Shown here piece after piece: positions 3 through 26,629 of a stretch of DNA of 64,000 nt. Numbering within the stretch: position 1 is the first letter of the stretch; each line of letters begins with the position of its first letter. This DNA is from a virus: IMG/VR virus record IMGVR_UViG_3300029286_001586, positions 10,053-74,052 of that record; one strand, 5' to 3'. The position numbers and the translations under genes were made by a program. The notes under the pieces were generated by a model. That model was not told the origin of the DNA, did not search any database, and was given only the letters and a program-made list of their open reading frames with translations.

Positions 3-1913
3 CTTATTGCGTTTCCAAATTTTGGATGTGAGGAAGCGCAAAAGAATCCTACTACTTGGCCAACGCTTTGTCCTCATACGCATAATTGGCAGTTTACATT
101 GGAAACAGCTTCGGCGGTACTAATGGCAGCAGGGTTTGATGTTATAAGCAATCCAGAACTTACAGGCAATCTTGTGTTGATTGGGAGAAAAGCACAGGTG
201 GGGGCTTATCCTGTTGTTGATATTAAGAGACACGAAAGAGACCATGTAGATATCATTCTTCCAATATATAACGGGGATTATACAAAGACCTTTGTAAAAG
301 AATTATATGAAACCGCAGATTATCCTTTTAAACTTTACATAATAGACGATTGTTCTAATGATGGTATTGCTGACTATATTAAAACAGAAGTTCTTCCTAA
401 ACACAAAGAAATTGTTTATATTAGGAACGAAGAAAATCTTGGATTTTTAAAAACAGTCAATGTTGGCATTAGAGCATCGGAAAATGATTTTGTATTGATA
501 GCAAATAACGATTTAAGGTTTCTGAGAAAAGGATGGCTTTCAACAACGGTCAATACACTCAAAAATAATAAAGATATTGGAGCGGTGGGCATAGAATACT
601 TACATAGTGACGTTGATTTTGTTACGATGTGTTATTTTATGACGAAAAGAAGCATCTTGGATAGAATTGGATATCTCGATGAGTCTTTTGCGCCTGGAGT
701 ATTTGAAGATGTAGAATTTTGCACTCGTTTGCAACTTATGGGATATGGTTGTGTTGCAATAGACATTCCTGTTGCTCATTTAAATAATAACGGACCGCAG
801 CAAAACATTACCAAAGAAAAACTTACCGAAATAAATAGACAGAAGTTTCTTGCTAAATATAATTTTGTTCACAGAGATTTCAAAATAGTATTTCATATGA
901 ACAATCAGCTATGGGTTGGAGGCATTGAGGAAGTTATAAAAAATCTTATAAAATACAAAGACGAAGGATATGAAGTTATTGTTGCGTCCCCTCAAGACGG
1001 TCGTATGGCAAAAGAAATGAGAGATTATGGAGCAACTGTTTTTATTGGAAATTTCACAAAAATATACAATTTAATAAATATAATAAAACCAGATATAATT
1101 CATACGCACACTTCTGGTTTGCTCACATATGGAAATCATTTGGCTAATTTAATAGTTCCGAAACCTATTCGAGTTGAGACAATTCATTCTCCAGGAACGA
1201 ACAATGCAACCGAAGATAAATTAGATGCTCTAGTTTCGGTTAGTAATGATACATTTTTGAGACAGAACTTTAGTAGAACAGTTGAGATATTAAATGGCGT
1301 TGATTTTGATAAGTGTAAAAGAGAAGAAATAGGGAAACCTAAAGAAACAAATAAAATAGTAATTGGAAAAACATGCAGAATGGCTAAAGATAAAAAGGTT
1401 CTTGATTTTATTTTGGCTGCATATTATCTGACAGAAAAATATAAAAACACAAAATATAATTTGGAGTTTCATTTGGTCGGAGACGATAGCACAAAAATTT
1501 ATAGAGACAAATGTGTATTATTTGCAAAGCAGCTTGGACTCGGAAATCTTTTCTTCTATCCAGAAACCAGAGAAACTTCTTTTATGAATGGTTGGGATAT
1601 AGGCTTAGCTCCGACATGGAGCGAGGGATTTGGTATATCAACGGCAGAGATGGTTGCATTTGGTTTGCCAGTAGTGACATATAATTGTTTTGCCAATCCA
1701 GAAATAGTTTTAGACGGAATTAATGGATTTTTAGTTGATGTTGATGATATAAATGGTTTGGTTGAAAAAACATCCAATCTAATCGAAAATAAAGAATTGA
1801 GACTTCAGATGGGAGAAAATGGGTTATCCCACATACAAAATTTTGATGCAAGAAATATGTCGAAAGAATATTACGATTTATATAATAAACTACTAGGAGA
1901 AAAAGTTGGGTAA
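3..1913 (+). CDS. Multidomain methyltransferase(C-terminal part)-GT2-GT4 glycosyltransferase, 5'-truncated by the window edge
   Basis: The frame is open from nt 3 (LIAFPNFGCEEAQKNPTTWPTLCPHTHNWQFTLETASAVLMAAGF, resembling the C-terminus of class I SAM methyltransferases). GT2 motifs follow (DIILPIYN, IIDDCSND, NLGF, ANND, FEDVEFC), then GT4/GT-B motifs (GGIEEV, PDIIHTH, NGVD, EGFGISTAEMVAFGLPVV). Confidence 0.85.
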   Translation, partial: LIAFPNFGCEEAQKNPTTWPTLCPHTHNWQFTLETASAVLMAAGFDVISNPELTGNLVLIGRKAQVGAYPVVDIKRHERDHVDIILPIYNGDYTKTFVKELYETADYPFKLYIIDDCSNDGIADYIKTEVLPKHKEIVYIRNEENLGFLKTVNVGIRASENDFVLIANNDLRFLRKGWLSTTVNTLKNNKDIGAVGIEYLHSDVDFVTMCYFMTKRSILDRIGYLDESFAPGVFEDVEFCTRLQLMGYGCVAIDIPVAHLNNNGPQQNITKEKLTEINRQKFLAKYNFVHRDFKIVFHMNNQLWVGGIEEVIKNLIKYKDEGYEVIVASPQDGRMAKEMRDYGATVFIGNFTKIYNLINIIKPDIIHTHTSGLLTYGNHLANLIVPKPIRVETIHSPGTNNATEDKLDALVSVSNDTFLRQNFSRTVEILNGVDFDKCKREEIGKPKETNKIVIGKTCRMAKDKKVLDFILAAYYLTEKYKNTKYNLEFHLVGDDSTKIYRDKCVLFAKQLGLGNLFFYPETRETSFMNGWDIGLAPTWSEGFGISTAEMVAFGLPVVTYNCFANPEIVLDGINGFLVDVDDINGLVEKTSNLIENKELRLQMGENGLSHIQNFDARNMSKEYYDLYNKLLGEKVG

Positions 1914-2616
1914 TCAACATTTATGTACGATTTGTCATAAGCTGCTTGCTAAGAGAGATTGGGTGGGAGGGATTTGTGAAAAGTGTGCTAATCCAAGTAC
2001 AGAGGTTCTTTTGTATGATTCTAAAGTAATACTTCATGTCAAGAATAAAGAAGAACGGAGTTTGTTAGAGGGGTGGGCAAAAGACTACAACGAAATCGAG
2101 TTCGATGTTCCTGACCCATATAATGATATATCAGCACTTCTTCTCTATCGTTTAGAAACATATAGGATAGGAAAATCTCTTGTCAATGTCAAAGATGAAG
2201 CAGAAAGAAAGAAACTCCACGAATCACTTAATTATTCCACAAATCAGATAGAAGGAATTCAGAAGAAGATAGGAATAACTAGAGACAAAATTCAAAAGAG
2301 AAAAGGTTCTGCCGAAGTAATGTTCCCCCAGCTTATGAAAGAATTCGCAAAATACAGAGCGGAGCATCAACACGTTTTTAGAGGAATGGCAGTATGCACT
2401 AAGTGTAATGAGAGGATAATCGTTAAGAGCTTTCTTCCCACATTTGAACAGTGGTCAATAAAAAAACTGGAAGACCTGGCAGTACAACACACAGACTCAC
2501 AAACACTTATTAATCAGTATAGAAAACATATTGAAGCATTTGGGAACCCAGAGCAATATAGCGAAGAAATCAGGAGATTGATTGAAAATGTCACAGATGC
2601 AGATAATCAGGAATAA
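1906..2616 (+). CDS. Putative terminase small subunit / Zn-finger protein
   Basis: Directly upstream of TerL; CxxC pairs; helical body. Function inferred from position. Confidence 0.45.
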   Translation: MGNQHLCTICHKLLAKRDWVGGICEKCANPSTEVLLYDSKVILHVKNKEERSLLEGWAKDYNEIEFDVPDPYNDISALLLYRLETYRIGKSLVNVKDEAERKKLHESLNYSTNQIEGIQKKIGITRDKIQKRKGSAEVMFPQLMKEFAKYRAEHQHVFRGMAVCTKCNERIIVKSFLPTFEQWSIKKLEDLAVQHTDSQTLINQYRKHIEAFGNPEQYSEEIRRLIENVTDADNQE

Positions 2617-2618
2617 CA

Positions 2619-5222
2619 TTGGCAAAATATAAAACGAAAATTGACGCCGATTTCCTTTATCTGTTGTCGTGTTTTTATGACCCCGCTTCTTTCTTCGAGT
2701 TCTTTAATTCGCAGGAACATACAAAAGACGGCAAGCCATATGAGCTTATGCAGCCGTTTCTTGATTACTCATATTCTCGTCTTATAAAAAATCATAGGTG
2801 CTTGGCTTCTTCTCGTAATTGCCAAAAAACAACATTGCTAGAGAACGAAACGCTCCAAGACGCTTTAACAAGAGTTGACCAGAAGACAGGATTTATTGTT
2901 CCTTCGGAAAAGCACATGATTGAGGTAGCAGAAAATCTTGTGAGAAAAACCCAGACATATCCTCTACTTAAACTTTTCTTCAAAGATTGGTATGTTAAAA
3001 ATAGATACATGCAGTTCCATACTGGTCACATGATTGAGTTCAGGATAATGGGACATGATTATACAGGAGAAAAATCAGCAATCGCTTTACACTGTCTTGA
3101 TGGGGACCAAGAAGTGTTGTTTTATGACGGAACCAAGATGAAGATAAAGGATGTTGTTGAGAATAAAGTTTCTAAGAGGGTTGTATCATATTCGCATCAT
3201 TTAGGTAAAATTGAGGCAAGTAATATTGTTAATTGGTTTAAATTCAAGAATCATAAAGACGTTTCTGAAGAAGTAATTGAAATTGTTTTAGATAATAACG
3301 AAAAAATTGTTTGTACGAATGAACACATGTTTCAAACTGCAAGAACAAGCAAGACTTTTATTCCTGCAAAATATCTTTATATTAACGACAAACTATACAA
3401 AAATATTTCATTTAATTGTAAAGTAGTCGAATGGTGGAATGACAACAAAAGAACAGATGAATATATAAGAGGCTTGCTCTTAGGAGACGGAAGCATTTCT
3501 CGTCACAAATCGACGCATAATGCAAGAATTAAAGTGTGTCATTGTTCTAAACAAAAAGAATATTTGGATTTACAGAAAAACATGTTTTCTGATGTGGGTT
3601 ATAGTGAGTATAATAGCATTACAGAATACAAGTCTCATGTATTTTCGGTGCAGAGTCGATGCTCAGAGAAGTTTAATAAATATCATGATGAACTGATAAT
3701 CGGCGGTAAAAAGACGGTAACACAGAAATATCTTAATAAACTTACCCCGCTTTCTATTGCTGTATGGTATATGGATGATGGGAGCCTATCTGGAGATTCT
3801 TTGAGGTTAGCCACTCACGGATTTTCAAAGGAAGAAAATGATTTAATTTCTGAATATTTCAAAGATAAATGGGATATAGATAATGCAGTAATGGAAGATA
3901 AAAGAAAAAATTTGTTTTTTATCTATTTAAAAGATATTGATAAATTTTTGAAACTCATTGGTCCGTATATACCAACATGTATGCGATATAAACTTAGCAG
4001 AATTGTTTATGTTGGAATAAAATCATTAAATCGAATAAAATATGATAAGCCAGTTTATGATATAGAAGTTGAGACAAATCATAACTATTTCATTAATGGA
4101 ATTCTTTGCCATAATTGCCAAAAAAATGTAGTTGACGAATCACAGAATATCCCAAAAGAATATTTACAGCAGTTGACCCCAGGTTCGACACAAGGTTTTG
4201 AATATTTAATAGCGGGAGTTTCAAACAACATACGAACAACCGCTTTATGGTATGGCGTAGCAGACCCTATGTTTGTTTATCTACGCTATGCAATGTATGA
4301 GGGACCAAACTGGTCAGATGATATGGATAAGATGATGCAAGAGCAGACTGGTGGCAAAGAAACACAGGGATGGAAGACGCTTGTTGAGGGCAGATGGGGT
4401 GAGAGAGCCTTTAATGTGTTTCCGATGAACAAGATTTGGGAAGCATCAATGATGTTTCAAAAAAACAAACATCTATATTCAAACCAGATATTCCATGACA
4501 TGACTACAAACGAACTTCTATCTAAATTGGTTCTTCCTGCGTTAGATGGAAAATTTTGCGAATATATTTTGGGAGTTGATGTGGGAGGAAATTCAAATAA
4601 TTCTCCTTCTGAAATTGAAGTTTGGGGTCTTAAAATTAGGGGAGATAAGTTGGGTTGGATTCTTGTTTATAAATTGTCATTATACAACATAGGTACTGTT
4701 ATTCAGTCTGAAATAGTTGATTATATAGCATCTTATTTTAATGTAAATGGATTAGGTATTGATGCTCAAACAGTGGGTTCTGATTTATATAGAAACCTTA
4801 CTGAAGGCAAAGTAATTTCGGACCCAGCCAAAGTAGAACGATATAAGAATATATGCAAACCATTTATCATGAACTCAATGGTAGTTGTCGATAAATTATT
4901 TAACAAGCAGAAGCAAAAAGACGAAGAACTAAAACAACCTGTTAAGATGAAAGCGACAATACTACTTCAAGAGTTGTTCAGACAAAATCTTATAGAGCTT
5001 CCTGGCGTAAAAGAGATAATGGAGTCATTTCAGGCAGAAACATGGCAGTCTAATAGGCAAAGAATAGGCGGAATGACATATATGAACGATAAGAACGAAC
5101 ATTTAGTAGATGCTGCTAGAATGGCTGTTATGGCTAGATGGACAATAGAGCAAGAAGGACTGCTACCACAGGAAGCAGAAGCAAGAGATATCCCAGGACC
5201 AAATATCAGGAGAATGAAATGA
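2619..5222 (+). CDS. terL: Terminase large subunit containing an intein
   Basis: Walker A-like SSRNCQKTT, Walker B VVDESQ, nuclease motifs LGVDVG, GIDAQ and NEHLVDAAR; lies upstream of the portal. Confidence 0.85.
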   Translation: MAKYKTKIDADFLYLLSCFYDPASFFEFFNSQEHTKDGKPYELMQPFLDYSYSRLIKNHRCLASSRNCQKTTLLENETLQDALTRVDQKTGFIVPSEKHMIEVAENLVRKTQTYPLLKLFFKDWYVKNRYMQFHTGHMIEFRIMGHDYTGEKSAIALHCLDGDQEVLFYDGTKMKIKDVVENKVSKRVVSYSHHLGKIEASNIVNWFKFKNHKDVSEEVIEIVLDNNEKIVCTNEHMFQTARTSKTFIPAKYLYINDKLYKNISFNCKVVEWWNDNKRTDEYIRGLLLGDGSISRHKSTHNARIKVCHCSKQKEYLDLQKNMFSDVGYSEYNSITEYKSHVFSVQSRCSEKFNKYHDELIIGGKKTVTQKYLNKLTPLSIAVWYMDDGSLSGDSLRLATHGFSKEENDLISEYFKDKWDIDNAVMEDKRKNLFFIYLKDIDKFLKLIGPYIPTCMRYKLSRIVYVGIKSLNRIKYDKPVYDIEVETNHNYFINGILCHNCQKNVVDESQNIPKEYLQQLTPGSTQGFEYLIAGVSNNIRTTALWYGVADPMFVYLRYAMYEGPNWSDDMDKMMQEQTGGKETQGWKTLVEGRWGERAFNVFPMNKIWEASMMFQKNKHLYSNQIFHDMTTNELLSKLVLPALDGKFCEYILGVDVGGNSNNSPSEIEVWGLKIRGDKLGWILVYKLSLYNIGTVIQSEIVDYIASYFNVNGLGIDAQTVGSDLYRNLTEGKVISDPAKVERYKNICKPFIMNSMVVVDKLFNKQKQKDEELKQPVKMKATILLQELFRQNLIELPGVKEIMESFQAETWQSNRQRIGGMTYMNDKNEHLVDAARMAVMARWTIEQEGLLPQEAEARDIPGPNIRRMK
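3093..4115 (+). mobile_element. Intein with LAGLIDADG homing endonuclease in TerL (341 aa)
   Basis: Starts CLDGDQEV; block B CTNEH; LAGLIDADG-like GLLLGDG and WYMDDG; ends VYDIEVETNHNYFINGILCHN, followed by Cys+1. Confidence 0.93.
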
Positions 5223-5332
5223 TTTCGTTGTGTAAAAAGTGCTGGTGTATGACAAAGAATAAAAAAGTAAAAGGGACAAAGAATGATTGGGTTTGCGGTA
5301 AATGCGGAGCAAAGAAAGATAGGATAAAATGA
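5219..5332 (+). CDS. Small zinc-finger protein (37 aa)
   Basis: ATGA overlap with the terL stop; MISLCKKCWC...WVCGKCG. Confidence 0.55.
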   Translation: MISLCKKCWCMTKNKKVKGTKNDWVCGKCGAKKDRIK

Positions 5333-5598: not shown

Positions 5599-5653
5599 GG
5601 ACGCCAAAAATTGTAAATAAATTTGGCTTTATGTGGGCATAATATGAGAAGCA

Positions 5654-7267
5654 ATGACTAAAACAAATAACTTGAAACAAAATGGTCCAGGCTTCGTTCG
5701 TAAAACAAATTCTCAATATGATAAACAAATGGATGCTTTCCGAAGCTCCATAGGTAATCTATTTACTTCAAATGACCCCACGCTATCTTCACAAGGCAAA
5801 GTCGAAAAGCTCATGCAGCAAGGATATTGGGGAGATGTAATAAAATCTCTCAAAATATACGAATCCGACGCTGTTATTAAAAAACTAATAGATGAAAGCA
5901 CTTACTGTGCAAACACAAAAGTAATGTTTTCATCTACTGATGATGAGAAAACCAAAGAAGTATATGAGGAATGGGCAAAACGAATAAACGAAGATGTCCC
6001 TAATGTAATTCCTGGTATTAATACTGTTGCTGAATGGATATTACTTTCTTTACTTAAAACAGGAATGGCTGTTCCTGATTTTGAATGGCAAGACATTGAT
6101 ATCAATGGCGAAATATATACGCTTCCAATGAAACTCAATGTTCATCCTACCCTTGCAGTTAAATTAAAATCAAGTCCTCTTAAATTTGGTTATGAAGAAG
6201 TATGGCTTGGTTTAAATATTACTTCAGATGATTTCAAGAAAGAAACAGCAAATGCAGACCAATCATATTTAGTAAAATATGTCGAAATGGTCCCAGGAAA
6301 TTCCCCTTATGGCGGAAAAGTTCTTAATGAAGTATGGCACGATAAAGCACAAACAAAAAACACAATACTTTGTGTTAAGAAGCCCAACGCCTTTGCCCTA
6401 AAGTATAAATGGTCAGCACAAGACACGACATATTATCCTATTCCTCCTCTTAAAGCGTTGTTTGCTCCTATTGCAATGAAGCACAAGCTCCAAGAAGCGG
6501 ATATGTCCTTACTTCAGAGAGTAATCAGTAGGATTATACATGTCAAAGTTGGCGATAAGGACAATCCTCCGAAACCAGACATCGTTGATAAAGACGGAAA
6601 TGTGACTAAAAAAGGAACACTCACACTTTATTCAGAAATGTGGCAAGAAGGCGAAGGCACACAAATATTCACTACTGATTATACAGTGTCAATTGAAGAT
6701 AAAATACCAGACTTGGAGTTAGTTCTAAATCAGGCAAAGTATATACCCTCTCTTATGGAAATAATGGGAGCTTTTGGTATCATGCAAGACCCAGACTCTA
6801 AAGTGGGGTCTGCTCCTCATGCACAACTTAATTTGACTAAATATGAGAAATATCTCGAAGACTTGCAAAAAATAGTTATCGGATATATTAAATGGTTATG
6901 CAAAGAAATAGATAAAAAGAATCCGAAGATAAAAAAACCGTCTAATATAGTAATGAATCCCCCCTATATCGATACTGCAACACAGAAATCTCTAGCTGAT
7001 TTATTTAAAATGGGAGCAGTAGATATTTATACCCTTCTTGAATCTATTGATTTGGACCCGACACAGATTAAAGCCAGGAAAGAAAAACAGCTTGGTGATA
7101 ATATGACGAACGGAGAGAATGTTTGGAGTCCGCCAACATCTCTTGTTCAAATCGCAAAAGACAAAAATGGTTCTATGAAAGAAGAATTTTCTGAAGATTC
7201 GGAACCAGGACGCCCCACGAAAAAAGAAAAAACAGACGAAATGCAGTCAGAAGAAATAAAACAGTAG
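5654..7267 (+). CDS. Portal protein
   Basis: 537 aa between TerL and the protease/capsid genes; portal-like C-terminus ending EPGRP plus a charged tail. Confidence 0.75.
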   Translation: MTKTNNLKQNGPGFVRKTNSQYDKQMDAFRSSIGNLFTSNDPTLSSQGKVEKLMQQGYWGDVIKSLKIYESDAVIKKLIDESTYCANTKVMFSSTDDEKTKEVYEEWAKRINEDVPNVIPGINTVAEWILLSLLKTGMAVPDFEWQDIDINGEIYTLPMKLNVHPTLAVKLKSSPLKFGYEEVWLGLNITSDDFKKETANADQSYLVKYVEMVPGNSPYGGKVLNEVWHDKAQTKNTILCVKKPNAFALKYKWSAQDTTYYPIPPLKALFAPIAMKHKLQEADMSLLQRVISRIIHVKVGDKDNPPKPDIVDKDGNVTKKGTLTLYSEMWQEGEGTQIFTTDYTVSIEDKIPDLELVLNQAKYIPSLMEIMGAFGIMQDPDSKVGSAPHAQLNLTKYEKYLEDLQKIVIGYIKWLCKEIDKKNPKIKKPSNIVMNPPYIDTATQKSLADLFKMGAVDIYTLLESIDLDPTQIKARKEKQLGDNMTNGENVWSPPTSLVQIAKDKNGSMKEEFSEDSEPGRPTKKEKTDEMQSEEIKQ

Positions 7268-7277: not shown

Positions 7278-7697
7278 ATGCCAGGATATCCGAAGAATTT
7301 TTTAGCTAATTGGGTTGCACAGGCTTCACCAAAAGCCATGATTGACCAACTGGAAGACAATATAGAAGTTGTTGTTGATGAACTCGCTTCTGGTCTGCTG
7401 GGTTACGAACCTGATATAACAACGAATAGTTTAAGTGGAAGCATGATACTCAATGCTACTATTGGTTCATCAAAAATTGTCGTAGCAGATTGGGCGACGA
7501 AACAGAACGCAATAGCTCTCAGTTCATTGTCTGGTGTTTATTTGGCAGATGGAAGCGTTCTTGCAAGAAAAACAGATTTTTTGACTGTTGGCGTGTCTGG
7601 GTTATCTTTAGGAAAATTCGGTCCATTAAGGGACGCTGATGGAGTAAATGTTTATTTATATATTAGTGGAGGGGCAGTACAAACAAGTAGGACATAA
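7278..7697 (+). CDS. Putative minor virion (head) protein
   Basis: Strong SD (GGGAG); within the head module; SG-rich. Confidence 0.5.
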   Translation: MPGYPKNFLANWVAQASPKAMIDQLEDNIEVVVDELASGLLGYEPDITTNSLSGSMILNATIGSSKIVVADWATKQNAIALSSLSGVYLADGSVLARKTDFLTVGVSGLSLGKFGPLRDADGVNVYLYISGGAVQTSRT

Positions 7698-8881: not shown

Positions 8882-9265
8882 ATGGTTTATAGTACGGTTT
8901 TTCAGACGAGAGCTGGTTCCAATGATAGAATCATAAATGATTTGAGGACGGGGGTTGCTTTGTCTGGCGGTCTTGCGGTTGCTATGTCAGGTGACAGTCT
9001 GTGTCTCGCAACTATTAATGATGTTCCGCTTGGTTGGGTAGGAAACTATTACAATTCAGGGGAAGTTGTTACGGTTATTAGAGACGGCAGAGTTACAGTT
9101 CAGTGTGCGGAAGCTGTTAGTGCTGGTGTAGATGTTTGCGCTGGTGTTAATGGAACAGTAGAAATATTTTCTGTGACTAGGCACAAAACTGGCGGAGCTA
9201 CTGCTTGCGGAAAAATGATTGAAGTTACGGCATCTGGTCTGTATGGACAGATGGAAATTATATAA
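8882..9265 (+). CDS. Capsid decoration/cement protein
   Basis: 127-aa Gly/Ala/Val-rich protein between scaffold and capsid genes; PLG..GEVVTV..G..AVSAG pattern. Confidence 0.7.
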   Translation: MVYSTVFQTRAGSNDRIINDLRTGVALSGGLAVAMSGDSLCLATINDVPLGWVGNYYNSGEVVTVIRDGRVTVQCAEAVSAGVDVCAGVNGTVEIFSVTRHKTGGATACGKMIEVTASGLYGQMEII

Positions 9266-10260: not shown

Positions 10261-10734
10261 ATGGAAAAAATAACATCATGTGAATTGTCTGGAGTAAGAA
10301 GGGCGATAAACGACCCTGCTGCTGTTACTTATTCTGATGCGAGTTTATATGGATATGTAGGAGATGCTATTTTAGAACTTAGTACAAAATACACATGTCA
10401 AGAATTTGAAATAAGTGGCGGTGTTATTAATCCTGCTCCATCATATGCCGAACAATCTATTCTTGATTTACAGACCAAAATTTGTATCATGAATAGTAAT
10501 TTATTTTCTTCAAGTCTTAATGGTGGCATTTCTTATTCTGACCCCGTTAAAAAAATTGATACAACCGGGTTGTCTCAAAACATTAGTGTCGGGATAAATA
10601 AAGAAGAACAAAAACTAGAAAAACTCATTAGGTCATTAATGATGGACAAAGTTGACCCTGTTGGTAAACCTAGTTGGCAATCAAGCACTTCAAATGAAGA
10701 TGATAGTATAAGTTTAAATATTTTGGAGACATAA
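10261..10734 (+). CDS. Head-tail adaptor protein
   Basis: First gene after the capsid gene; VRRAINDP...YSDASL pattern. Confidence 0.6.
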   Translation: MEKITSCELSGVRRAINDPAAVTYSDASLYGYVGDAILELSTKYTCQEFEISGGVINPAPSYAEQSILDLQTKICIMNSNLFSSSLNGGISYSDPVKKIDTTGLSQNISVGINKEEQKLEKLIRSLMMDKVDPVGKPSWQSSTSNEDDSISLNILET

Positions 10735-19224: not shown

Positions 19225-22200
19225 ATGGTATTCAGCGAAGATTTTTTTGTCAAACTAAGAATAGACGATACACAACTTAAAAATGATTTTAAGAAAGTAA
19301 CTAATAGCATAACTGCATCCAGTTCGTCTTCGTCTGGTGCTAATGTTTTTGGTGCGCTTGATAAAGGAGCAATGTCTAATCTCGCTTCTATAAAAAATCT
19401 TGTCTCAAAAGGGTATCTTCCTCTCAATGAGGGCATTGCTCAAAGCAAAAAAATTATTGATGGAATGAATCTTGGTCTTAACACTTCTGCCGAAGTAATG
19501 AAAAGACAAGAACATAATCTTGTCAGGATGGCTGGTGGATTCAAAGCAATGGCTTCTGACATAGTTCATGCTACTTCCAAAATGTTGCTTTGGGGTGCTG
19601 CTGCGACACTTATTTATATGCCTATTCGTGCATTTACTTCGCTAAATGAAGCTGGAGAAAAATGGGTAAATACATTAGAAGATATTCAGGCACTCACAAA
19701 TCTTTCAATAGAACAAACACAAAAACTCGCTTATATTACTAAGTCACAAGGTATTGACGAACAAGCTGTTTATAAAGGCATAGCAACACTTCAATCCAAA
19801 CTTCAAACTGCTGGCGGTCGTGGAAAACTAATGGATATTCTGGGAATATCTGACCCACAAGAACTTAAAAGAGTAATGTCTGATATCCCATTACTATTTG
19901 ATAAACTAAGAGAATCTGTTGCTAAAGGAGGAAACGCTGGTAATTGGATAAAAGACCTATTTGGTATGAAGGGCTTTGAATTTGCAAAACTCTTTAAGAT
20001 GAGCCAATCCGATGTTGATGAATTGATGAATAAATATAAAGAGTTTGTTGGTGTAGTTTCTCAGGAAAGGTTTGAACATCTTGATAAAATGGCAGACCAG
20101 TTAAAAGTCAATGAAGCTCTTATGTCTATTATGGCTTTGACAATGAGAGAGCAATGGCTGCCTGTGTTAATAGCATTATCAGAAGCATCTATTACTTTGA
20201 TGAAAAATTCGGGATGGGCTTTAGATATATCCAAAATTGTTTATCAAAGCTCTCTCAATTCCCAGGTATTAAAATGGCAAGACGAATACAAAAACAAAAC
20301 AGACGAAATGGCTGATGCTATAAAACGATTTGGACTGAATTCTGATGAAGCAAAAAAGAAACAAAAAGAACTTTTAAGTATTCAAAAAGAAATGATGGCA
20401 GCGACAAATATGGCAGACCCGAACTTTCCTTATAATAAAAAACCTTTACTAAAACCCTCTCCCGATAAAGATATGCCCGATATAGGGACAACCTCTTATG
20501 CAGCAGCATATGTAAAACAAGTCAGAGATGAAACTACCGAAGTAGATAAATTTAACAAGATAATAGCCAAGAACACTTACTTCATGTCCCAGAACGGACT
20601 TGAATTTAATAACTCATATAAACAAGCGCAGATTTATAGAGAACAATTGCTAGGACTTACAGAAGAATATAAAAAGCTAGACGCACAATTACAAAATTTT
20701 GCAAAACCAAATAAATTTGGAAATACTACCTATCAACAAGCATTAAAGGACATAAATGCTGCCAAAGCTAGTAAGGCTGCACTCGATTTAAAAAACGAAG
20801 ACAAAACACTTTCTCAGCAAGAAAAAGATGCTAATAAAGTAAAGATAAGAGAAGCCGAGTCTATGTTAGCCCATGCTTTAGAACAAAAAGAAATGGTAGA
20901 ACATACTAATTCTGAATATATTAAAATGCTCGGAATTCTTTCTCAGATAAACAAAGAACTTTATGGATATGATAGTTCTTTGATGAAGATATTTGACCAA
21001 GTAAGTGCGGGTAAAGCCGATTTTGCCGATATATTTTCTATATTAGGAAATAAGTCAGGTAATAGTATGCTTAGTAATATAGGTACTAGAATAGGTCAAA
21101 CTGGAGATATTGGAAAGGGGATTGGTTCTGCTATCGGAAGCGTGTTTGGTCCGATAGGAAGTGTTGTTGGTAGTTTATTTGGCGGAATGATAGGTGGTTT
21201 ATTTGGACCAGGAAAAGGTCCCGATACAAGTGCAATAGAAAAAGAAAATACTGACAGGATTAATGCCAATACTGCTGCACTAAAAGTATTTGAAGACGCA
21301 TTAAAAAATTCAAGCAATGCTTTAGATGATTTGCCCGAACAAGTAGCCTCTATCCAATCAAATTTAGATATTGCAACAGGTAAAGCGGGAAAACTTCCTA
21401 CTATTGACGCAACGAGTAGGAAACTGGATGATTTCGGCGATGCCATAACTAAAGTAACATATAATAACGGAAAAGTTGCATGGGAATATGATGGTACAAT
21501 TGTAGCACTTACTAAAAGCGCAAAGGATGCCAATGATGCAGTTACGGAATGGGCAGATAAATTAGCTGCAACAAATACATGGCTGGCAAGAGCAAACGCT
21601 TCAACAGCAACAACAGGATTTAATATTGCTATGGGCAACACGGGTGGGCTAAGTGCAGCACAATATGAAAAGAATCAAATACTCGCTATGATGGGACCAG
21701 GAGGGGAATCTTCTTCTTGGACCACAGAGTATTTAAGAAACATGCAGATAAAGTTAAAAGAACTTGATGCAACAATGGCGGATTCCAAAGTAACGAGTTT
21801 CATGGATAGTTTCAATCAACAGTTGAATATTCAATCTAATTTATACGATACAACTTCAGAAAAGGTTGCATTTTACAATCAACTTATAGCCGATATGGGT
21901 TCTAGTTTAGACCCTGCGAAATTAGCGGAATTTAATAATGAAATACAGAGATTACTTTCTCCTTCCCAAACTGTAACAGACCAAGAGGGGGAAATAAGAC
22001 ACGGCGCAGCAGCACTCAGACACAGCTTAATTGCTGGGGGAACAATGACTCCCGCAGAAGTAGAAGAAAAAATAAGACAATACAATATAGACGCTTATAA
22101 AGTATTATATGAAATGGTTAAAGACACAAATATCTCTCAGGCTATTTTAGATGGGTTACAGGAAACAGTCTGGACTTTGGAAGACGCAACATTTACACAG

Positions 22201-22317
22201 AACAATGAGATAAATAATCAGTTCAGTGGTGATATTGCTAATAATCTCGATTTTGATTACTTTGTACGAAGAATAGCTCAGGAAATGAGCAGACAGGGGC
22301 GGTCATACGCTTTTTAA
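19225..22317 (+). CDS. Tail tape measure protein
   Basis: 1030 aa, helical, with a glycine-zipper stretch (GSAIGSVFGPIGSVVGSLFGG). Confidence 0.85.
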   Translation: MVFSEDFFVKLRIDDTQLKNDFKKVTNSITASSSSSSGANVFGALDKGAMSNLASIKNLVSKGYLPLNEGIAQSKKIIDGMNLGLNTSAEVMKRQEHNLVRMAGGFKAMASDIVHATSKMLLWGAAATLIYMPIRAFTSLNEAGEKWVNTLEDIQALTNLSIEQTQKLAYITKSQGIDEQAVYKGIATLQSKLQTAGGRGKLMDILGISDPQELKRVMSDIPLLFDKLRESVAKGGNAGNWIKDLFGMKGFEFAKLFKMSQSDVDELMNKYKEFVGVVSQERFEHLDKMADQLKVNEALMSIMALTMREQWLPVLIALSEASITLMKNSGWALDISKIVYQSSLNSQVLKWQDEYKNKTDEMADAIKRFGLNSDEAKKKQKELLSIQKEMMAATNMADPNFPYNKKPLLKPSPDKDMPDIGTTSYAAAYVKQVRDETTEVDKFNKIIAKNTYFMSQNGLEFNNSYKQAQIYREQLLGLTEEYKKLDAQLQNFAKPNKFGNTTYQQALKDINAAKASKAALDLKNEDKTLSQQEKDANKVKIREAESMLAHALEQKEMVEHTNSEYIKMLGILSQINKELYGYDSSLMKIFDQVSAGKADFADIFSILGNKSGNSMLSNIGTRIGQTGDIGKGIGSAIGSVFGPIGSVVGSLFGGMIGGLFGPGKGPDTSAIEKENTDRINANTAALKVFEDALKNSSNALDDLPEQVASIQSNLDIATGKAGKLPTIDATSRKLDDFGDAITKVTYNNGKVAWEYDGTIVALTKSAKDANDAVTEWADKLAATNTWLARANASTATTGFNIAMGNTGGLSAAQYEKNQILAMMGPGGESSSWTTEYLRNMQIKLKELDATMADSKVTSFMDSFNQQLNIQSNLYDTTSEKVAFYNQLIADMGSSLDPAKLAEFNNEIQRLLSPSQTVTDQEGEIRHGAAALRHSLIAGGTMTPAEVEEKIRQYNIDAYKVLYEMVKDTNISQAILDGLQETVWTLEDATFTQNNEINNQFSGDIANNLDFDYFVRRIAQEMSRQGRSYAF

Positions 22318-22320: not shown

Positions 22321-23187
22321 ATGGCAGACATAATAAGACTTAGAAATCCTTTAGATACAAGTAAATACATAGACATTAATAACTCGACTTTAAGTGGGTG
22401 TTTTCTTGGGGTGGAACAATGTGATTTTGGAAAGTTCACTGGTTATCGAAAAGCAATACACGAATTCCCAGGACAGGATATTGCTAAGTATCAGAAGATA
22501 GGGCTTAATCCAAGAGACGGAAAGATAAACTTTTATCTCATGGCTCAAAATTCCGCAACTACTTATAGAACTGACCTACACAACGCTTTAAATGATTTAT
22601 ATAATTACATGTTCATTCAAGATGTTCAATTATATCTTAATCCCCCAAATAGATACGTGGTCGTGAATTGTGTTGGTGCAAATGTAACTGATGACGTTAA
22701 AGACGATAGTGTATTGAATATTGAAACTAATTTTATTGCAGTTGACCCATTTTCATATGAGGACTCTCTTACAGTGCAGTCTTCTTATATGGGGAGTGTG
22801 TCGGGAAAGAACCAATCTTTTCATGTTTCTGGTATGTTATATGTTGACCCGATAATTAAATGGAGTAATTATGGTGGAGGACTTGCAAGTGGTTTCTATC
22901 GCCAGGAAAATTTCATGATTTACAACGACACTAACGGGACATATTATGAATTCAATAGCCAGACCCCCCTTGTAAGCGGTTGGTATCTTGAAATAGATTG
23001 CACTAATGCAACTGTGATAAGCAATAATATAGCCGATTCATTAACAGATATCAATAAAATTGGTTATACAAATAGTCCGTCATTCATGCGTCTTGAAGGC
23101 AATAGGTCTAATAATTTGAGAGTTATCGATTCATTACAGAATAGTGGAAAACTTGAAATTACATATAGGAATAGGTGGTTTGTATAA
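22321..23187 (+). CDS. Distal tail protein (Dit-like)
   Basis: Follows the tape measure gene; FIAVDPFSY, LEIDC, LEGNRSN, ITYRNRW motifs. Confidence 0.75.
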   Translation: MADIIRLRNPLDTSKYIDINNSTLSGCFLGVEQCDFGKFTGYRKAIHEFPGQDIAKYQKIGLNPRDGKINFYLMAQNSATTYRTDLHNALNDLYNYMFIQDVQLYLNPPNRYVVVNCVGANVTDDVKDDSVLNIETNFIAVDPFSYEDSLTVQSSYMGSVSGKNQSFHVSGMLYVDPIIKWSNYGGGLASGFYRQENFMIYNDTNGTYYEFNSQTPLVSGWYLEIDCTNATVISNNIADSLTDINKIGYTNSPSFMRLEGNRSNNLRVIDSLQNSGKLEITYRNRWFV

Positions 23188-24423
23188 ATGCTTGATTTAA
23201 GCAAAATAACAGTACATATTTTTAAGAACTTACTTCTTACTGAAATATTTACAACATTAGTTTCTGTTGAATGGACGCTTACTAAAGGTAATGAGGCGGG
23301 AACATTCAAGGTTGTATTAAATAAATCATCAAACAATATTGAAAACATTCATTATAATGATGAAATAAAAATTTATTATGATAACTCGCTTAAATTCGGG
23401 GGTAGAATACAAACCAAAGACATAGATGACGATAATGATACCATTACAATAGGAGGATATTCATACACATTTGAATTATTGAATAAGCAAGTAAACTGGA
23501 AATATACAAATGAATATGCACATAAAATAGTCGAGTCTCTTGTGGACTTGCATAACAGTGACGGTGAAATAAGTTATGTGTCAGGATTAGGAGTTGATAC
23601 TTTTAGTGTATTTATAGATGAAGTTCTTTTTCAGCAAGACATGCTCAGTAATGCAGTTCAAAAAATGGCAGATGTAACAAATGCTTCTTATTGGGTAGAT
23701 GCTAATAAAAAATTATATTTCAAAAAAGACGAATATGTTAGTGGTGATATTACAAACATGTACATGAAGAATGTTAATGTTTCTAATATGAGGGTTACCA
23801 AAGATTCGTCTACAATAAAAAATAGAGGATTTCTTTTCGGAGGGGCTTATTCTGGTCAGGCAGTTCAGGTAGTTGAAACCATACAAAACTCGAATTCTGT
23901 TGATTTATTTGGTCCCAGAGATTTTTGTATATATGATACATCGGTAACTACCAGCGGGTATGCCCAATATAAATTAATATCCGAAATAACAAAATATTCG
24001 GACCCTAAAGTGTACGGAAGTTTTGATGTTCCTGGTGGTGATATAAATCTGAATTATGACAGTTATATAAATCTTAAAAATTTCGGCAATGAAATCGATG
24101 ATATATATCTTACTAAATCAGTCGGATATAAAATCGATTTAAAGGGAGCTACTACAAGCATTAATTTTGAAAGCAGAGTCCCGAATATTGAAAAAATTAC
24201 AAAAGAACTAGATGAGCGAATATCACGGCTTGAAAAATCGCAGATAACAGCGAATTTTATATTTAATATTTTGGATAGATTTGGATTAAGCGATTTTAAC
24301 CCAGGCAATCAACCAGAGAATATTTGTTTGTATGATAGCGGAGTATTTGATAATCAAGTCTTTTGTTATGAACCATATTTGTTTTTGTACAATTCCGATA
24401 CATTAGAATATTGGATTAATTAG
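23188..24423 (+). CDS. Baseplate hub / Tal-like protein
   Basis: Follows Dit; FGGRI, YWVDANKKLYF motifs. Confidence 0.65.
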   Translation: MLDLSKITVHIFKNLLLTEIFTTLVSVEWTLTKGNEAGTFKVVLNKSSNNIENIHYNDEIKIYYDNSLKFGGRIQTKDIDDDNDTITIGGYSYTFELLNKQVNWKYTNEYAHKIVESLVDLHNSDGEISYVSGLGVDTFSVFIDEVLFQQDMLSNAVQKMADVTNASYWVDANKKLYFKKDEYVSGDITNMYMKNVNVSNMRVTKDSSTIKNRGFLFGGAYSGQAVQVVETIQNSNSVDLFGPRDFCIYDTSVTTSGYAQYKLISEITKYSDPKVYGSFDVPGGDINLNYDSYINLKNFGNEIDDIYLTKSVGYKIDLKGATTSINFESRVPNIEKITKELDERISRLEKSQITANFIFNILDRFGLSDFNPGNQPENICLYDSGVFDNQVFCYEPYLFLYNSDTLEYWIN

Positions 24424-25157: not shown

Positions 25158-25166
25158 GAGAGAAAT

Positions 25167-25610
25167 ATGCAAGAAGGATTTGTTTTAAAGGGGCAGGTAG
25201 AATTAGAAATCATACGGGAAGATGGCAGCATTGAAATAATAAAGAATAATAATACTATTATGGATGTATCAAGACAAAATGTAGCGAATATTCTTTTAGG
25301 AAATGATACTTCTGGGGTAATACCCATGTTTTTTGGAGTTGGCACAGACCCAACAATATCAAATGTAAATATGTCAGAATTAGTCGTTCCTCTTGGTGCA
25401 AGAAAGTTTTTGGTATCAAAAGACAAGTCTTATTCTTCATTAGTGTATCAATTTCAAAGTGCTGCTGGAGAGCACACAGGAACTTGGAAAGAGGCTGGGC
25501 TGTTTTCGTCATATAATGACACAGGAACTCTTTTTTGTAGGGCAAATATTTCTCCAGTCAATAAAGCTGCGGGCGATACAATAAATGGAACATGGAGGAT
25601 TATATTCTAA
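25167..25610 (+). CDS. Tail/baseplate structural protein
   Basis: NNTI...FGVGTD...WKEAGLF...GTLFCR...KAAGDT..W motif common in tail-fibre-associated proteins. Confidence 0.65.
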   Translation: MQEGFVLKGQVELEIIREDGSIEIIKNNNTIMDVSRQNVANILLGNDTSGVIPMFFGVGTDPTISNVNMSELVVPLGARKFLVSKDKSYSSLVYQFQSAAGEHTGTWKEAGLFSSYNDTGTLFCRANISPVNKAAGDTINGTWRIIF

Positions 25611-26629
25611 TGGCTACTTATGTAAATCTTATAACATCAACGATGCAACCGATACAACCCGTATCGAGTTCTGATATGAAAAATAATTTTTTGCAAATAA
25701 AATCTGCTCTTGTTGATGGAACTTTGGATTTAAATACAAAATCGGTAACAATAAACGGAACTAATACTACTGTATTATCTAACGAAGTAACTGGTGGAGG
25801 ACTCAGATTAAAAACTGATAGTGCATGTACAGGCGGATTTGAATTACAGACATATAATGCAGGACCAGGATATACAAACAAATTAACACTTTCTAATGAT
25901 GGAGATTTAAACATTCTTTCATCTGCTGCGGTATCTGCATTTTCTGTTACAAACGCAACAAGGGCTGTTTCTACTGGAACACTGTCTTTGACTGGACCAA
26001 GTGTTGATAGTCTTGGTGGGAATATATTTTCTGGGTCTTCATCAGGGGCATTATCAATAACTGCTGGTGCAACTAATCAAGGCGGAAGAATAGAACTTTA
26101 TGGCGGAACTCATGCAACACTTCCAGGTCAAATCCTTATTAAAACAGGAACAACTGGAGGAGCAACTACCGCAATCACAATAGCGAATACAGGAGTAGTA
26201 ACCTTTGCTCAACCAATCGTAGCAACAATTACTACGGCAGCGCAAACAAACATAACATCTGTTGGAACTTTAGTGTCCCTTACTGTCTCAGGAGCAGTAA
26301 CAGCAGGGACTTCTTCTACTGGCGTTATGTGGAAAGTATTAAATATTGGGGATTGGGATATGGTAGCAAGTGATAATTGTGCAGTTGCTCACGGATTAGG
26401 AGATAGTTTTAAAAAGATTGTGAGTGTTTTTGCAGTAATTAGAACAGATAATGATGCTGCTTATTATAATTTGTCTTCGTATATTGGCGGAGTAGCTATG
26501 GGAGGAGTTTATTCGTTTTCTAATACAAATATTAATTTGGCAAGGGAAACGGGAGGAATTTTTAATCATACGGATTTTAATGCAACTTCTTTCAATAGAG
26601 GATTTGTTTATGTCGCTTATACAGCATAG
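25610..26629 (+). CDS. Tail fibre / receptor-binding protein
   Basis: SD GGAGG at 25594; T/G/S-rich; AAQTNITSVGTL repeat unit; C-terminal IGDWDM...NRG domain. Confidence 0.65.
   Translation: MATYVNLITSTMQPIQPVSSSDMKNNFLQIKSALVDGTLDLNTKSVTINGTNTTVLSNEVTGGGLRLKTDSACTGGFELQTYNAGPGYTNKLTLSNDGDLNILSSAAVSAFSVTNATRAVSTGTLSLTGPSVDSLGGNIFSGSSSGALSITAGATNQGGRIELYGGTHATLPGQILIKTGTTGGATTAITIANTGVVTFAQPIVATITTAAQTNITSVGTLVSLTVSGAVTAGTSSTGVMWKVLNIGDWDMVASDNCAVAHGLGDSFKKIVSVFAVIRTDNDAAYYNLSSYIGGVAMGGVYSFSNTNINLARETGGIFNHTDFNATSFNRGFVYVAYTA

Follow-up and report, generated by a model that had tools for sequence, protein, structure and literature searches.

Upstream of its terminase and virion genes, the window (the whole 64,000-nucleotide stretch of viral DNA that was analysed) carries the end of a gene cassette that we interpret, with a probability of roughly 55%, as a virion-directed glycosylation and methylation system, to which the conspicuous excess of Ser-Gly (SG) dipeptides in the virion proteins can be attributed only in part. 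The cassette and the SG excess are probably, but not demonstrably, linked. The preliminary description of this DNA had noted a triple-domain enzyme at the head of the late block and a concentration of SG in outer virion proteins, and had read hydrophobic-Ser-Gly as an O-glycosylation sequon; the SG observation is confirmed, and the interpretation as virion glycosylation at this site is partly supported, with the acceptor site putative.

The enzyme is real and larger than described. Its complete open reading frame, which the window cuts, spans positions 9545-11965 of the genome record G000 (L002:9545-11965) and encodes an 806-aa protein with matches to PF13489 (1.5e-22), PF00535 (7e-16), PF00534 (8.5e-21), and PF13439 (3e-6). 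Its gene closes a six-gene cassette of glycosyltransferases (GT) and methyltransferases (MTase) that occupies about 9 kb (G000 3244-11965) and encompasses, according to Pfam, about ten catalytic domains (GT4; GT2+GT4; MTase; GT2+MTase; MTase; small HExxH protein; MTase-GT2-GT4). From G000 3244 up to and including the terminase, each open reading frame overlaps or adjoins the next, and the cassette is co-oriented with the terminase and the late genes; the six genes are predicted to be translationally coupled to one another and to these downstream genes. No transmembrane segment was found in any of the cassette products, all of which are predicted to be soluble. The GT domains are generic GT2/GT4 domains, the best weak matches of which are polysaccharide enzymes, and their scores do not come near any NCBIfam equivalog cut-off, so that the donor and the acceptor cannot be read from the sequence. 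The source phage is uncultured and comes from a lake, with a low-GC genome that belongs to a freshwater/sediment metagenome lineage; no sequence relationship to any cultured phage was detectable.

The locus is conserved in position among relatives. In two of these (L029 and L044), orthologues of the MTase and MTase-GT2-GT4 proteins (57-59% identity) lie directly upstream of the homologue of the 1906 gene (genes are denoted here by their start positions) and of the large terminase gene, and in the more distant genome G001, with a portal 35% identical, a 17-kb GT cluster with six GT2 and three GT4 matches occupies the equivalent place. In the sister lineages L036/G003, L040, and L042, GT2/GT4 domains are absent at the locus and, instead, a 527-647-aa protein with the PF01973 (Maf_flag10) domain adjoins the same conserved, 1906-type gene; no such protein is encoded in G000 or G001. 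The Maf O-glycosyltransferases, which act on Ser/Thr of flagellin, carry this domain (bioRxiv 10.1101/2020.06.03.131540), but PF01973 covers MptE kinases as well, so that the Maf assignment rests on domain and size only. The Maf-like protein seems to take the place of the GT2/GT4-MTase cassette, not to belong to it. In L029, L044, L004, L036, L040, and L042, the neighbour of the 1906 homologue is either the GT cassette or the Maf-like gene; the 1906 protein itself had no match in Pfam, PHROG, or NCBIfam, and its ESM-Atlas leads, to YonG_N and Terminase_4, are weak. The large terminase orthologues of L029, L044, and L004 (526-535 aa) are intein-free. Only two or three of these lineage contrasts are independent, and the portal tree is an unresolved polytomy.

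Table 1. Features of the cassette end and the terminase/virion block in the window, with observed and expected SG counts.
Position	Strand	Product	SG observed/expected	Basis
3..1913	+	C-terminal 636 aa of the 806-aa Methyltransf_23-GT2-GT4 protein		Pfam, orthologues
1906..2616	+	Conserved 236-aa protein between cassette and terminase; possible small terminase subunit		
2619..5222	+	Large terminase with intein carrying LAGLIDADG homing endonuclease		PF03161 2e-37, PF14890 3.9e-16
5654..7267	+	Portal protein, 537 aa	0/1.8	85 homologues in representative library; conserved synteny
7278..7697	+	139-aa virion-block protein	5/1.5 (p 0.009)	
7701..8864	+	387-aa conserved head-assembly protein	0	Homologues in all related loci
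8882..9265	+	127-aa cement/decoration-like protein	4/1.2	Weak PF22758 Phage_cement and PF23982, both below family cut-off
9285..10178	+	Major capsid protein	2/1.0	phrog_1650 1e-9
10734..11204	+	156-aa protein	5/1.2 (p 0.002); 0 GS	
11236..12669	+	SG-centred repeat, fibre-like protein, 477 aa	19/5.6; 5 GS	
12949..14019	+	356-aa protein	7/2.4 (p 0.006)	
14016..14990	+	Virion structural protein	4/1.9	phrog_1645 6e-13
15516..17117	+	Major tail protein, tube or sheath, 533 aa	8/3.2	
19225..22317	+	Tape measure protein, 1030 aa	4/5.6	Size and position
22321..23187	+	Dit-like distal tail protein, 288 aa	6/1.7 (p 0.003)	PF22768 SPP1_Dit 5.8e-5, below family cut-off
23188..24423	+	Tail hub/Tal-like protein, 411 aa	5/2.1 (p 0.045)	Position after Dit, faint Sipho_Gp37 match
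25592..26629	+	345-aa Gly/Ser-rich distal tail protein	3/4.1, not enriched	

All the SG counts previously made by hand were reproduced exactly (for example, 19/477 for 11236, 0/537 for the portal, 0/387 for 7701, and 4/1030 for the tape measure protein), whereas the labels "protease-scaffold", "tail tube", and "hub" given to some of the proteins are not borne out by family searches, which yielded no match (as for 7701) or only a match below the cut-off. When the counts expected from within-protein shuffles are used to correct for composition, the structural block (5654-26629) contains 78 SG against 39.0 expected (z 6.9), the strongest outlier among the 400 dipeptides, with GS at 31/39.3, TG at 41/41.8, and NG at 20/31.5, and the 71 non-structural open reading frames of the window contain SG at 41/37.1 (z 0.7). 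The excess thus survives the correction, is directional and confined to virion proteins, and is specific to Ser, being absent for Thr. Nine of the 24 structural proteins are individually enriched at p<0.05. The single repeat protein 11236 accounts for 19 of the 78 sites, which therefore are not independent, and without it, SG stands at 59/33.4 (z 4.7). The claim that SG usually follows a hydrophobic residue holds as well: such a residue occupies position -1 at 45 of the 78 SG sites, compared to 146 of the 430 other serines. The Ser codons at SG are mixed (TCT, AGT, TCA, AGC, and TCG, in about their overall proportions), so the signal resides at the protein level rather than in a DNA motif. Serines within SG are retained in 0.91, 0.55, and 0.67 of the aligned cells, compared to 0.41, 0.08, and 0.37 for other serines. 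Their conservation is about equal to that of the Gly and two- to seven-fold above that of other serines.

The 11236 protein has about seven units (D/N)x(L/I/V)-S-G-(M/L/I)(I/V)G(I/L)(L/I)P and three units DGFE(V/P)SGS(L/M)L, followed by a C-terminal beta domain; in its homologues (n=4, 286-672 aa), the number of repeats varies and SG is kept in 91% of the aligned cells, and its AF2 model (pLDDT 34) is too poor for use. Six of the seven SG of the 12949 protein fall within the last 110 residues, and the L031 orthologue of the 7278 protein contains 4 SG against 1.1 expected. For the major tail protein 15516, homologues were identified in L004 and L041 and among database proteins (five), and conservation of several SG positions extends to homologues only 25-33% identical. 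Many SG positions of this protein are shared by lineages with and without the cassette, as would be expected of a structural turn. SG had been expected in surface loops; the hydrophobic flanks and a weak AF2 model of the 15516 protein (pLDDT 45) place it, instead, at strand ends rather than in long exposed loops.

The excess is replicated in G001, where the virion proteins contain 99 SG against 48.2 expected (z 7.9, top of 380 dipeptides) and the non-structural genes show z values of -0.3 and 1.1. There, too, an SG-rich repeat protein is encoded, 746 aa long with a ConA-like domain; its repeats differ in sequence from those of 11236, and both sets centre on hydrophobic-S-G. The contrast with phages lacking the glycosyltransferase that the preliminary description had envisaged holds only in degree: SG is higher in G000 and G001, but the observed/expected ratio (O/E) in virion proteins is 1.40 in 16 distant loci (third of 380 dipeptides), 1.25 in five model phages pooled (rank first), 1.64 in lambda, which has no GT and shows 42% hydrophobic residues at -1, and 1.68 in the Maf sister lineages, which lack the GT2/GT4 cassette. 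The generic level is exceeded here by a factor of 1.4-1.6. A hydrophobic residue precedes SG at 58% of the sites in the window and 60% in G001 but only at 34% in the Maf lineages and 33% in the 16 distant loci, a difference that persists after removal of the repeat proteins (Fisher p 0.001). With the same proteins removed, the SG excess over the 1.40 baseline is modest and marginal, with P 0.047 in each genome and 0.008 combined. About half of the SG richness, then, is common to tailed phages, which makes the motif a plausible but unproven sugar attachment site, and much of the remainder resides in the SG-centred repeat fibre proteins.

Several known systems come close to the cassette. In mycobacteriophages Che8, Corndog/cluster O, and Myrna, phage-encoded GTs and an O-methyltransferase are stated to modify virion structural proteins, the glycans reportedly being located at the C-terminal ends of capsid and tail-tube subunits (Freeman et al. 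2023, as summarised in PMC11600133 and PMC12619734), and, as far as these summaries go, the system is likewise cytoplasmic and devoid of lipid-carrier machinery. They describe, however, three GTs and one MTase, compared to about ten catalytic domains in fused multidomain proteins here; furthermore, the cassette lies directly upstream of the terminase, neither the capsid protein nor the major tail protein ends in an S/T-rich C-terminal tail, and the phage belongs to a low-GC, freshwater/sediment lineage. WsaE, from the S-layer glycan cluster of Geobacillus stearothermophilus, resembles the phage enzyme, at the level of generic Pfam domains, in combining an N-terminal MTase and two GT domains in one soluble protein encoded in a cluster of closely overlapping genes. 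WsaE makes a 2-O-methyl cap (PMC2943079) that terminates a protein-linked O-glycan; that glycan, however, is lipid-linked, exported by Wzm/Wzt, and transferred by the oligosaccharyltransferase WsaB, and such partners are absent here. In chlorovirus PBCV-1, the three-domain A064R (GT-GT-MTase, PMC7826918, the reverse of the phage order), along with A111/114R, extends and O-methylates the capsid-protein glycan in the cytoplasm at non-canonical acceptor sites, but in this eukaryotic giant virus the glycans are N-linked and carried by the major capsid protein, whereas here the capsid protein is not the one rich in SG. The autotransporter heptosyltransferases TibC/AAH (PMC4358343) hyperglycosylate, in the cytoplasm, many Ser but not Thr residues in repeated beta-strand/turn motifs of a beta-rich surface substrate, with one site mapped to ...NSGGAV...; they are iron-containing dodecamers with a domain not found here and add single heptoses, not a methylated oligosaccharide, to a bacterial rather than viral substrate. 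The Maf enzymes, which transfer nonulosonic acid to flagellin, are also cytoplasmic and act on Ser/Thr of a polymerising structural protein, and the corresponding domain occurs at the equivalent locus of the sister phages. The analogy to eukaryotic glycosaminoglycan sites, drawn in the preliminary description, fails on context: the resemblance is limited to the Ser-Gly dipeptide as an O-glycan acceptor, and the acidic flanks, disordered regions, and Golgi xylosyltransferase contrast with the hydrophobic flanks observed here.

Could the cassette have a different target altogether? Hypermodification of phage DNA, or action on the host envelope or an exopolysaccharide glycan during infection, with the SG bias unrelated, seems unlikely, even though lipid-linked glycan assembly is where the MTase-GT-GT architecture is best documented, WsaE being an example, the best, if weak, matches of the GT domains are to polysaccharide enzymes, and DNA or host glycans are common targets of phage GTs (Markine-Goriaynoff 2004 and Pyle 2024, as cited in PMC12619734). 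No ThyA-like hydroxymethylase and no TET/JBP were found in G000 or G001, although, with the records only 53% and 71% complete, gene absences prove little; the cassette itself, free of transmembrane segments, contains no gene for a lipid carrier, flippase, ABC transporter, initiating phosphoglycosyltransferase, or oligosaccharyltransferase/O-OTase. The shared orientation and predicted coupling with the terminase and late genes, and the Maf-type protein O-glycosyltransferase at the same locus of sister lineages, also argue for a virion target.

Whether the virion-directed cassette and the SG excess belong together is a harder question. The excess might be purely structural, a strand-capping or turn unit of beta-rich virion proteins and fibre repeats, inherited or convergently favoured and perhaps chosen over Asn-Gly/Asp-Gly for chemical stability, in which case virion glycosylation by the cassette may still take place, at residues other than these serines. 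This is a serious contender, albeit short of an even chance: SG is a top or near-top dipeptide in the virion proteins of unrelated phages, lies at predicted strand termini in the weak 15516 model, and is conserved at the same positions in lineages without the cassette; NG is depleted in the virion proteins of the window but enriched in its other proteins (46 vs 34.5 expected); and the SG-free proteins are those expected to be helical (portal, scaffold, and tape measure protein being the helical set). A fold-intrinsic motif, however, would not predict that the hydrophobic preference at -1 is missing in the Maf lineages and distant phages; the generic turn formers NG, DG, AG, and TG do not exceed z 1.7 in either the window or G001; NG depletion is not seen in G001; and the amplitude is above the generic level. 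The opposite, stricter version of the preferred explanation, in which hydrophobic-Ser-Gly is the O-glycosylation sequon, many outer virion proteins are hyperglycosylated, and the 11236 repeats form a periodically glycosylated fibre, is somewhat doubtful. The restriction of the hydrophobic-SG preference to the GT2/GT4 lineages, the two non-homologous SG-centred repeat proteins in two cassette-bearing genomes, the specificity for Ser over Thr, the conservation of the SG serine, and the TibC/AAH precedent for Ser-only modification of short strand-turn motifs all point to it, along with the decoration-like protein 8882, in which (alignment A4) SG turns of the window, L031, L033, and L004 are partly replaced by AD, AG, SA, or PG in L041, L036, and L040, the last two being Maf lineages. 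Against it stand the generic SG bias, present also in unglycosylated phages such as lambda, the marginal excess once the repeat proteins are set aside, the SG positions conserved in Maf lineages too, the hydrophobic, strand-end context (both AF2 models are of low confidence), and the mere two SG of the major capsid protein.

Under the preferred explanation, namely, a virion-directed cassette to which the SG signal is only partly attributable, the enzymes would be made late, together with the structural proteins, and would use host cytoplasmic nucleotide sugars and SAM to build, most likely directly on the virion proteins and either ahead of assembly or in its course, a short, O-methylated oligosaccharide with a methyl cap, conceivably following the same logic as the mycobacteriophage glycosyltransferase/O-methyltransferase genes and A064R of PBCV-1. 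The SG signal consists of two layers: a generic one, the preference for SG over GS at O/E of about 1.25-1.4 that is typical of tailed-phage virion proteins, including those of lambda, and a lineage-specific one, with a total O/E of about 2, 58-60% hydrophobic residues before the Ser, and SG-centred repeats in fibre-like proteins. In form, the motif resembles a strand-end/turn unit composed of a hydrophobic strand residue, Ser, and Gly, with the Ser under strong purifying selection; to judge from the hydrophobic residues on either side, these strand ends may well be partly buried. If the cassette indeed decorates the virion, hydrophobic-Ser-Gly would be the leading, though tentative, candidate for the site at which the sugar is attached.

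The enzyme that the preliminary description placed at the head of the late gene block, a fusion of a methyltransferase (MTase) with GT2 and GT4 glycosyltransferase (GT) domains, is real, and belongs to a position-conserved cassette that is larger than first described. Its ORF is cut by the window edge and is complete in the 74,052-bp IMG/VR record (G000), of which the window makes up bases 10053-74052 (CheckV completeness 53%); altogether, the six genes of the cassette encode six GT and four MTase domains recognized by Pfam. All ORFs from the start of the cassette to the terminase abut or overlap (-26 to +2 nt), and none of them contains a transmembrane-like segment. The cassette also encodes a small HExxH protein, for which no family match was found. 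The surrounding genome, with a GC content of about 35%, consists of a late block on the plus strand (1-28 kb) followed by a replication block on the minus strand, the content of which is ordinary (PolB, RecA, DnaB, RtcB, and RuvB-like proteins only), and searches with the DNA, the portal protein, and the GT protein identified no relatives among cultured phages. The intein-containing insert of the large terminase is absent from the orthologues (526-535 aa) in three related loci, L029, L044, and L004; NrdD, too, is intein-interrupted in the relatives L040 and G001. Amid the baseplate and distal tail genes, there is a Cupin_2 protein that faintly resembles the cupin of mannose-6-phosphate isomerase, an unusual location for a small sugar-isomerase-like fold.

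Features of the window and related loci
Feature	Record or locus	Position	Strand	Details
GT/MTase cassette	G000	3244-11965		six genes
GT4 protein	G000	upstream of 806-aa ORF		424 aa
GT2+GT4 protein	G000	upstream of 806-aa ORF		637 aa
Methyltransf_24 protein	G000	upstream of 806-aa ORF		218 aa
GT2+Methyltransf_11 protein	G000	upstream of 806-aa ORF		490 aa
Second methyltransferase	G000	upstream of 806-aa ORF		213 aa
HExxH protein (motif HEILH)	L002 (G000)	9166-9570		134 aa; between methyltransferase and MTase-GT2-GT4 gene
MTase-GT2-GT4 protein	window	3-1913 (cut)		806 aa when complete; Methyltransf_23 62-219, GT2 254-375, GT4/GT1 475-777
Large terminase with intein and LAGLIDADG homing endonuclease	window	2619-5222	+	Pfam PF03161 2e-37, PF14890 3.9e-16
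Structural block	window	5654-26629		24 ORFs, 6,864 aa
Cupin_2 protein	window	24433-24822		129 aa; 1.4e-12
Hexamer tandem repeat	window	29857-29987		CGACCC x 21.8
PF01973 (Maf_flag10/MptE-like) protein	L036	3-1583	-
	L040	1-1236	-
	L042	229-2076	-
	G003	626-1150
Flavoprotein of G001 GT cluster	L053	15309-16388	- (of record)	359 aa
SG-rich protein right after portal	L025 (G002)	10829-14158		1,109 aa
Lambda virion proteins	L056	2836-21973

Among 1.8 billion representatives, 85 homologues of the portal were found, and a five-sequence portal profile recovered 47 loci (the portal protein by itself had recovered none, and ten sequences had made the profile too divergent). In the closest relatives, L029 and L044, which together with L031 have portals 57-68% identical to that of the window, an MTase and the MTase-GT2-GT4 protein (57-59% identity) are kept directly upstream of the terminase and of a homologue of 1906, the conserved 236-aa protein of the window. 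The same architecture recurs in the distant relative G001, a 101-kb record (71% complete) with a portal 35% identical, where a 17-kb cluster contains six GT2 and three GT4 matches, a flavoprotein, and an intein-laden NrdD. The domain make-up of this NAD_binding_8/amine-oxidase-like flavoprotein recalls UDP-galactopyranose mutase, a resemblance that may point to a furanose sugar. No GT2 or GT4 domains were found in the 10 kb upstream in L003/L036 (record G003), L040, and L041/L042, with portals 36-37% identical; in L036/G003, L040, and L042, the 1906 homologue is adjoined by a divergently transcribed PF01973 protein of 527-647 aa (1e-32). PF01973 is the Maf_flag10 domain of flagellin Ser/Thr O-glycosyltransferases (bioRxiv 10.1101/2020.06.03.131540), enzymes of about 600 aa in which it is central; the domain was found only in these sister lineages (the Maf lineages), and G000 and G001 lack it. 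The alternation of the cassette and the PF01973 gene at one locus suggests that either of two glycosylation machineries can occupy the slot that opens the late operon, one of which machineries would, judging from its domain match, belong to a known family of protein glycosyltransferases. In the Maf lineages, NrdD, homing endonucleases, and a DNA N6/N4 methylase lie between the PF01973 gene and the terminase. In the portal tree, the window groups with L029 and L033, and G001 and the Maf lineages fall into a polytomy.

In architecture, the 806-aa protein is closest to PBCV-1 A064R, with the order GT-GT-MTase (PMC7826918), and to WsaE, in which an N-terminal MTase and two GT domains make a methyl cap (PMC2943079). 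Like WsaE, it unites a SAM methyltransferase at the N-terminus and two GT domains behind it in one soluble polypeptide. Unlike in the case of WsaE, partners from a lipid-carrier pathway are absent from the cassettes of G000 and G001, neither of which encodes an initiating phosphoglycosyltransferase, a Wzm/Wzt exporter, or an O-OTase (nor was a flippase seen in G000), although both records are incomplete and the host could supply these. WsaE employs a rhamnosyl donor and adds a 2-O-methyl cap (PMC2943079); the NCBIfam and PDB matches of the cassette proteins, in contrast, are generic GT4, GT2, and MTase, far under every equivalog cut-off, with weak similarities both to polysaccharide enzymes and to SdgA/B and Gtf1, which are protein O-GlcNAc transferases, so that the sugar donor and acceptor are not readable from sequence. 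Scans of all cassette proteins against Pfam and NCBIfam detected only GT2, GT4, and MTase, with no domain of the autotransporter heptosyltransferase family. The ThyA-like hydroxymethylase (PF00303) is absent from G000 and G001 at their respective 53% and 71% completeness, and TET/JBP (PF12851) was not found in either, the latter being the weak half of this test because its control matched nowhere. The most likely reading, to which we assign a probability of about 0.55, is that the cassette is made late and operates in the cytoplasm as a machine that would glycosylate and methylate virion proteins.

The hand counts of the Ser-Gly dipeptide (SG) in the preliminary description were all reproduced exactly by recounting, and the excess withstands correction for composition. 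When all 400 dipeptides were compared with within-protein shuffles, without preselecting SG, it emerged as the top outlier in the structural block of the window (z 6.9), with AT the runner-up (z 3.5); the observed and expected numbers were 31/39.3 for GS, 41/41.8 for TG, 36/32.3 for DG, and 20/31.5 for NG. Nine structural proteins are individually significant, and the 71 other ORFs of the window (11,650 aa) show 41/37.1 for SG (z 0.7). In the structural block of G001 (26 ORFs, 9,029 aa), SG is the top heterodipeptide (z 7.9; VS second, z 5.0), with z -0.3 in the GT cluster and 1.1 in the minus-strand genes. A single repeat protein is not the source of this signal, given that 59/33.4 (z 4.7) remains without the fibre-like protein 11236 in the window, and SG is still on top (72/41.7, z 5.1) without a 746-aa repeat protein in G001. 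The Ser codons at the SG sites of the window are a mixture of all families, implying selection at the protein level, and together with the lack of a tandem DNA repeat in 11236, this rules out a DNA-level cause. Generic enrichment of turn formers leaves the specificity for Ser unexplained because NG, DG, AG, and TG are not enriched, and avoidance of Asn-Gly falls short as well, with a deficit of about 11 NG sites against 39 extra SG and no NG depletion in G001. The NG count in the virion proteins of the window corresponds to z -2.3, compared to 46 vs 34.5 (z +2.0) in the ORFs at 28000-64000; possibly, deamidation-prone sites are avoided in long-lived particles.

Ser-Gly in virion proteins
Set	SG observed/expected	O/E	Rank	Hydrophobic at -1 of SG
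Window	78/39.0			58% (45/78); 53% without repeats
G001	99/48.2			60%; 51% without repeats
L031	12/4.9			7/12
L033				5/10
Maf lineages pooled	50/29.8	1.68		34%
16 distant loci, virion-side ORFs (32,255 aa)	179/127.7	1.40	3 of 380	33%
Same 16 loci, upstream ORFs		1.21
Lambda, HK97, SPP1, Che8, and L5 pooled (model phages; virion proteins as annotated)	228/182	1.25	1
Lambda	60/36.5	1.64	2	42%
Che8		1.23
HK97		1.14
L5		1.12
SPP1		1.01

The same scan applied to phages without such a cassette puts this excess in perspective. SG is raised there as well, whereas the ratio for GS stays at about 0.9-1.0 in all baseline sets (at expectation in lambda), so that a preponderance of SG over GS seems to be common to the virion proteins of tailed phages in general; we know of no earlier description of this over-representation. 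The comparison with relatives lacking the GTs, which the preliminary description had envisaged, thus comes out divided: the excess is present in the Maf lineages, the distant loci, and lambda, but the amplification over the 1.40 baseline in the cassette-bearing phages holds (P 0.002 for the window and 0.0002 for G001). Once the repeat proteins are removed, P rises to 0.047 for each (0.008 combined), which implies that the raw excess is generic to about one half; much of the remainder is carried by the fibre repeats. The SG signal is an amplified form of a generic bias.

The repeats of 11236, with units such as DLISGMIGILP, vary in number among its four homologues, with SG kept in 91% of the aligned cells. 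Its counterpart in G001 combines DADVSGTYTPLVDFNI units with a ConA-like lectin domain, and the two proteins are unlike one another in repeat sequence. For 1906 and 11236, the ESM Atlas offered sub-threshold leads only. In L025, from the provirus-classed record of a distant relative with a single GT match about 20 kb away on the opposite strand, the protein encoded right after the portal has 29 SG, where 9.5 would be expected, and faintly matches Mtd_N (major tropism determinant). The hexamer repeat of the window is open in all six frames and on the minus strand, the local gene orientation, would give a putative 55-aa peptide of Ser-Gly, Ser-Arg, and Ser-Trp dipeptides; no counterpart turned up in G001 or the related loci, and to tie the repeat to the Ser-Gly theme would be purely speculative.

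The hydrophobic residue that had been noticed in front of SG is borne out by comparison with other serines (146/430 in the window, within a background of 33-36%) and is not generic to tailed phages, the contrast persisting after removal of the repeat proteins (Fisher p 0.001). In three protein families, the SG serine is conserved in 0.91, 0.55, and 0.67 of the aligned cells, compared to 0.41, 0.08, and 0.37 for other serines, about equally to the SG glycine. In the decoration-like protein, homologous turns that have SG in the window, L031, L033, and G001 have, in part, AD, AG, SA, or PG instead in the Maf lineages; several SG positions of the major tail protein, on the other hand, are retained in a Maf lineage too. 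AlphaFold confidence is low, with an unusable model for 11236 (pLDDT 34) and a weak one for the major tail protein 15516 (pLDDT 45), in which each SG site with readable secondary structure immediately adjoins one of the ends of a predicted strand, fitting a pattern hydrophobic-S-G-hydrophobic.

These features can be read in two ways. The lineage-specific part of the signal, namely, the hydrophobic residue at -1, the SG-centred fibre repeats, and the conserved Ser, tracks the GT2/GT4 cassette in the few lineages compared, which makes hydrophobic-Ser-Gly a reasonable, albeit tentative and somewhat doubtful, candidate acceptor. A purely structural origin of SG, with which the generic bias, the strand-end positions, and the sites shared with a Maf lineage would be compatible, seems about equally likely. 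Among known acceptors, those of TibC/AAH heptosylation are Ser-only, many-site, and located at strand turns, with one mapped Ser within NSGGAV (PMC4358343), and would be a precedent for a candidate acceptor of this kind; the observations from the window that bear on the comparison are the enrichment of SG and not TG, the SG-centred repeats, and the strand-end sites of the low-confidence model. The eukaryotic analogy proposed in the preliminary description fails on the flanking residues: the glycosaminoglycan Ser-Gly sequon has acidic flanks and lies in an exposed, disordered region, whereas in the window L, V, or I precedes 36 of the 78 SG, and +1 and +2 are mostly hydrophobic. The mycobacteriophage-type system, in which phage-encoded GTs are often accompanied by an O-methyltransferase, is matched in its genes by the GTs and MTases of the cassette. 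In the summary given in PMC12619734, mycobacteriophage virion glycans are reported at the C-termini of capsid and tail-tube subunits; here, in contrast, the C-termini of the capsid and major tail proteins are not extended by an S/T-rich stretch, and there are only two SG in the capsid protein.

A fuller scenario, which we consider unlikely as a whole, would be that, in this lineage of uncultured freshwater phages, a ten-domain, phage-encoded assembly line puts a methyl-capped oligosaccharide on outer virion proteins, with the Ser of hydrophobic-Ser-Gly at beta-strand ends as the acceptor and the SG-centred fibre repeats as periodic glycan carriers, and that a Maf-type nonulosonic-acid transferase has taken the place of the entire system, in the corresponding position, in sister lineages. 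To our knowledge, phage-encoded virion glycosylation, which blunts antibody recognition, has been demonstrated only in a few actinobacteriophages. The locus described here, from an uncultured phage lineage unrelated to these, encodes a putative glycan assembly line that is much larger and built of fused domains. If the scenario is true, it would be without precedent on two counts, as a case of a sequon predicted for phage virion glycosylation and as a system of this kind beyond the actinobacteriophages. Given that the bias of SG over GS is general, lambda included, any future sequon claim built on dipeptide counts will need such a baseline. As a candidate acceptor motif, hydrophobic-Ser-Gly is specific enough to be falsified, and the host need not be cultured for this; the single slot, occupied by either the GT2/GT4-MTase cassette or a Maf-like protein glycosyltransferase, offers a natural comparison set. 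The locus thus bears on the prevalence of virion glycosylation and on its acceptor rules.
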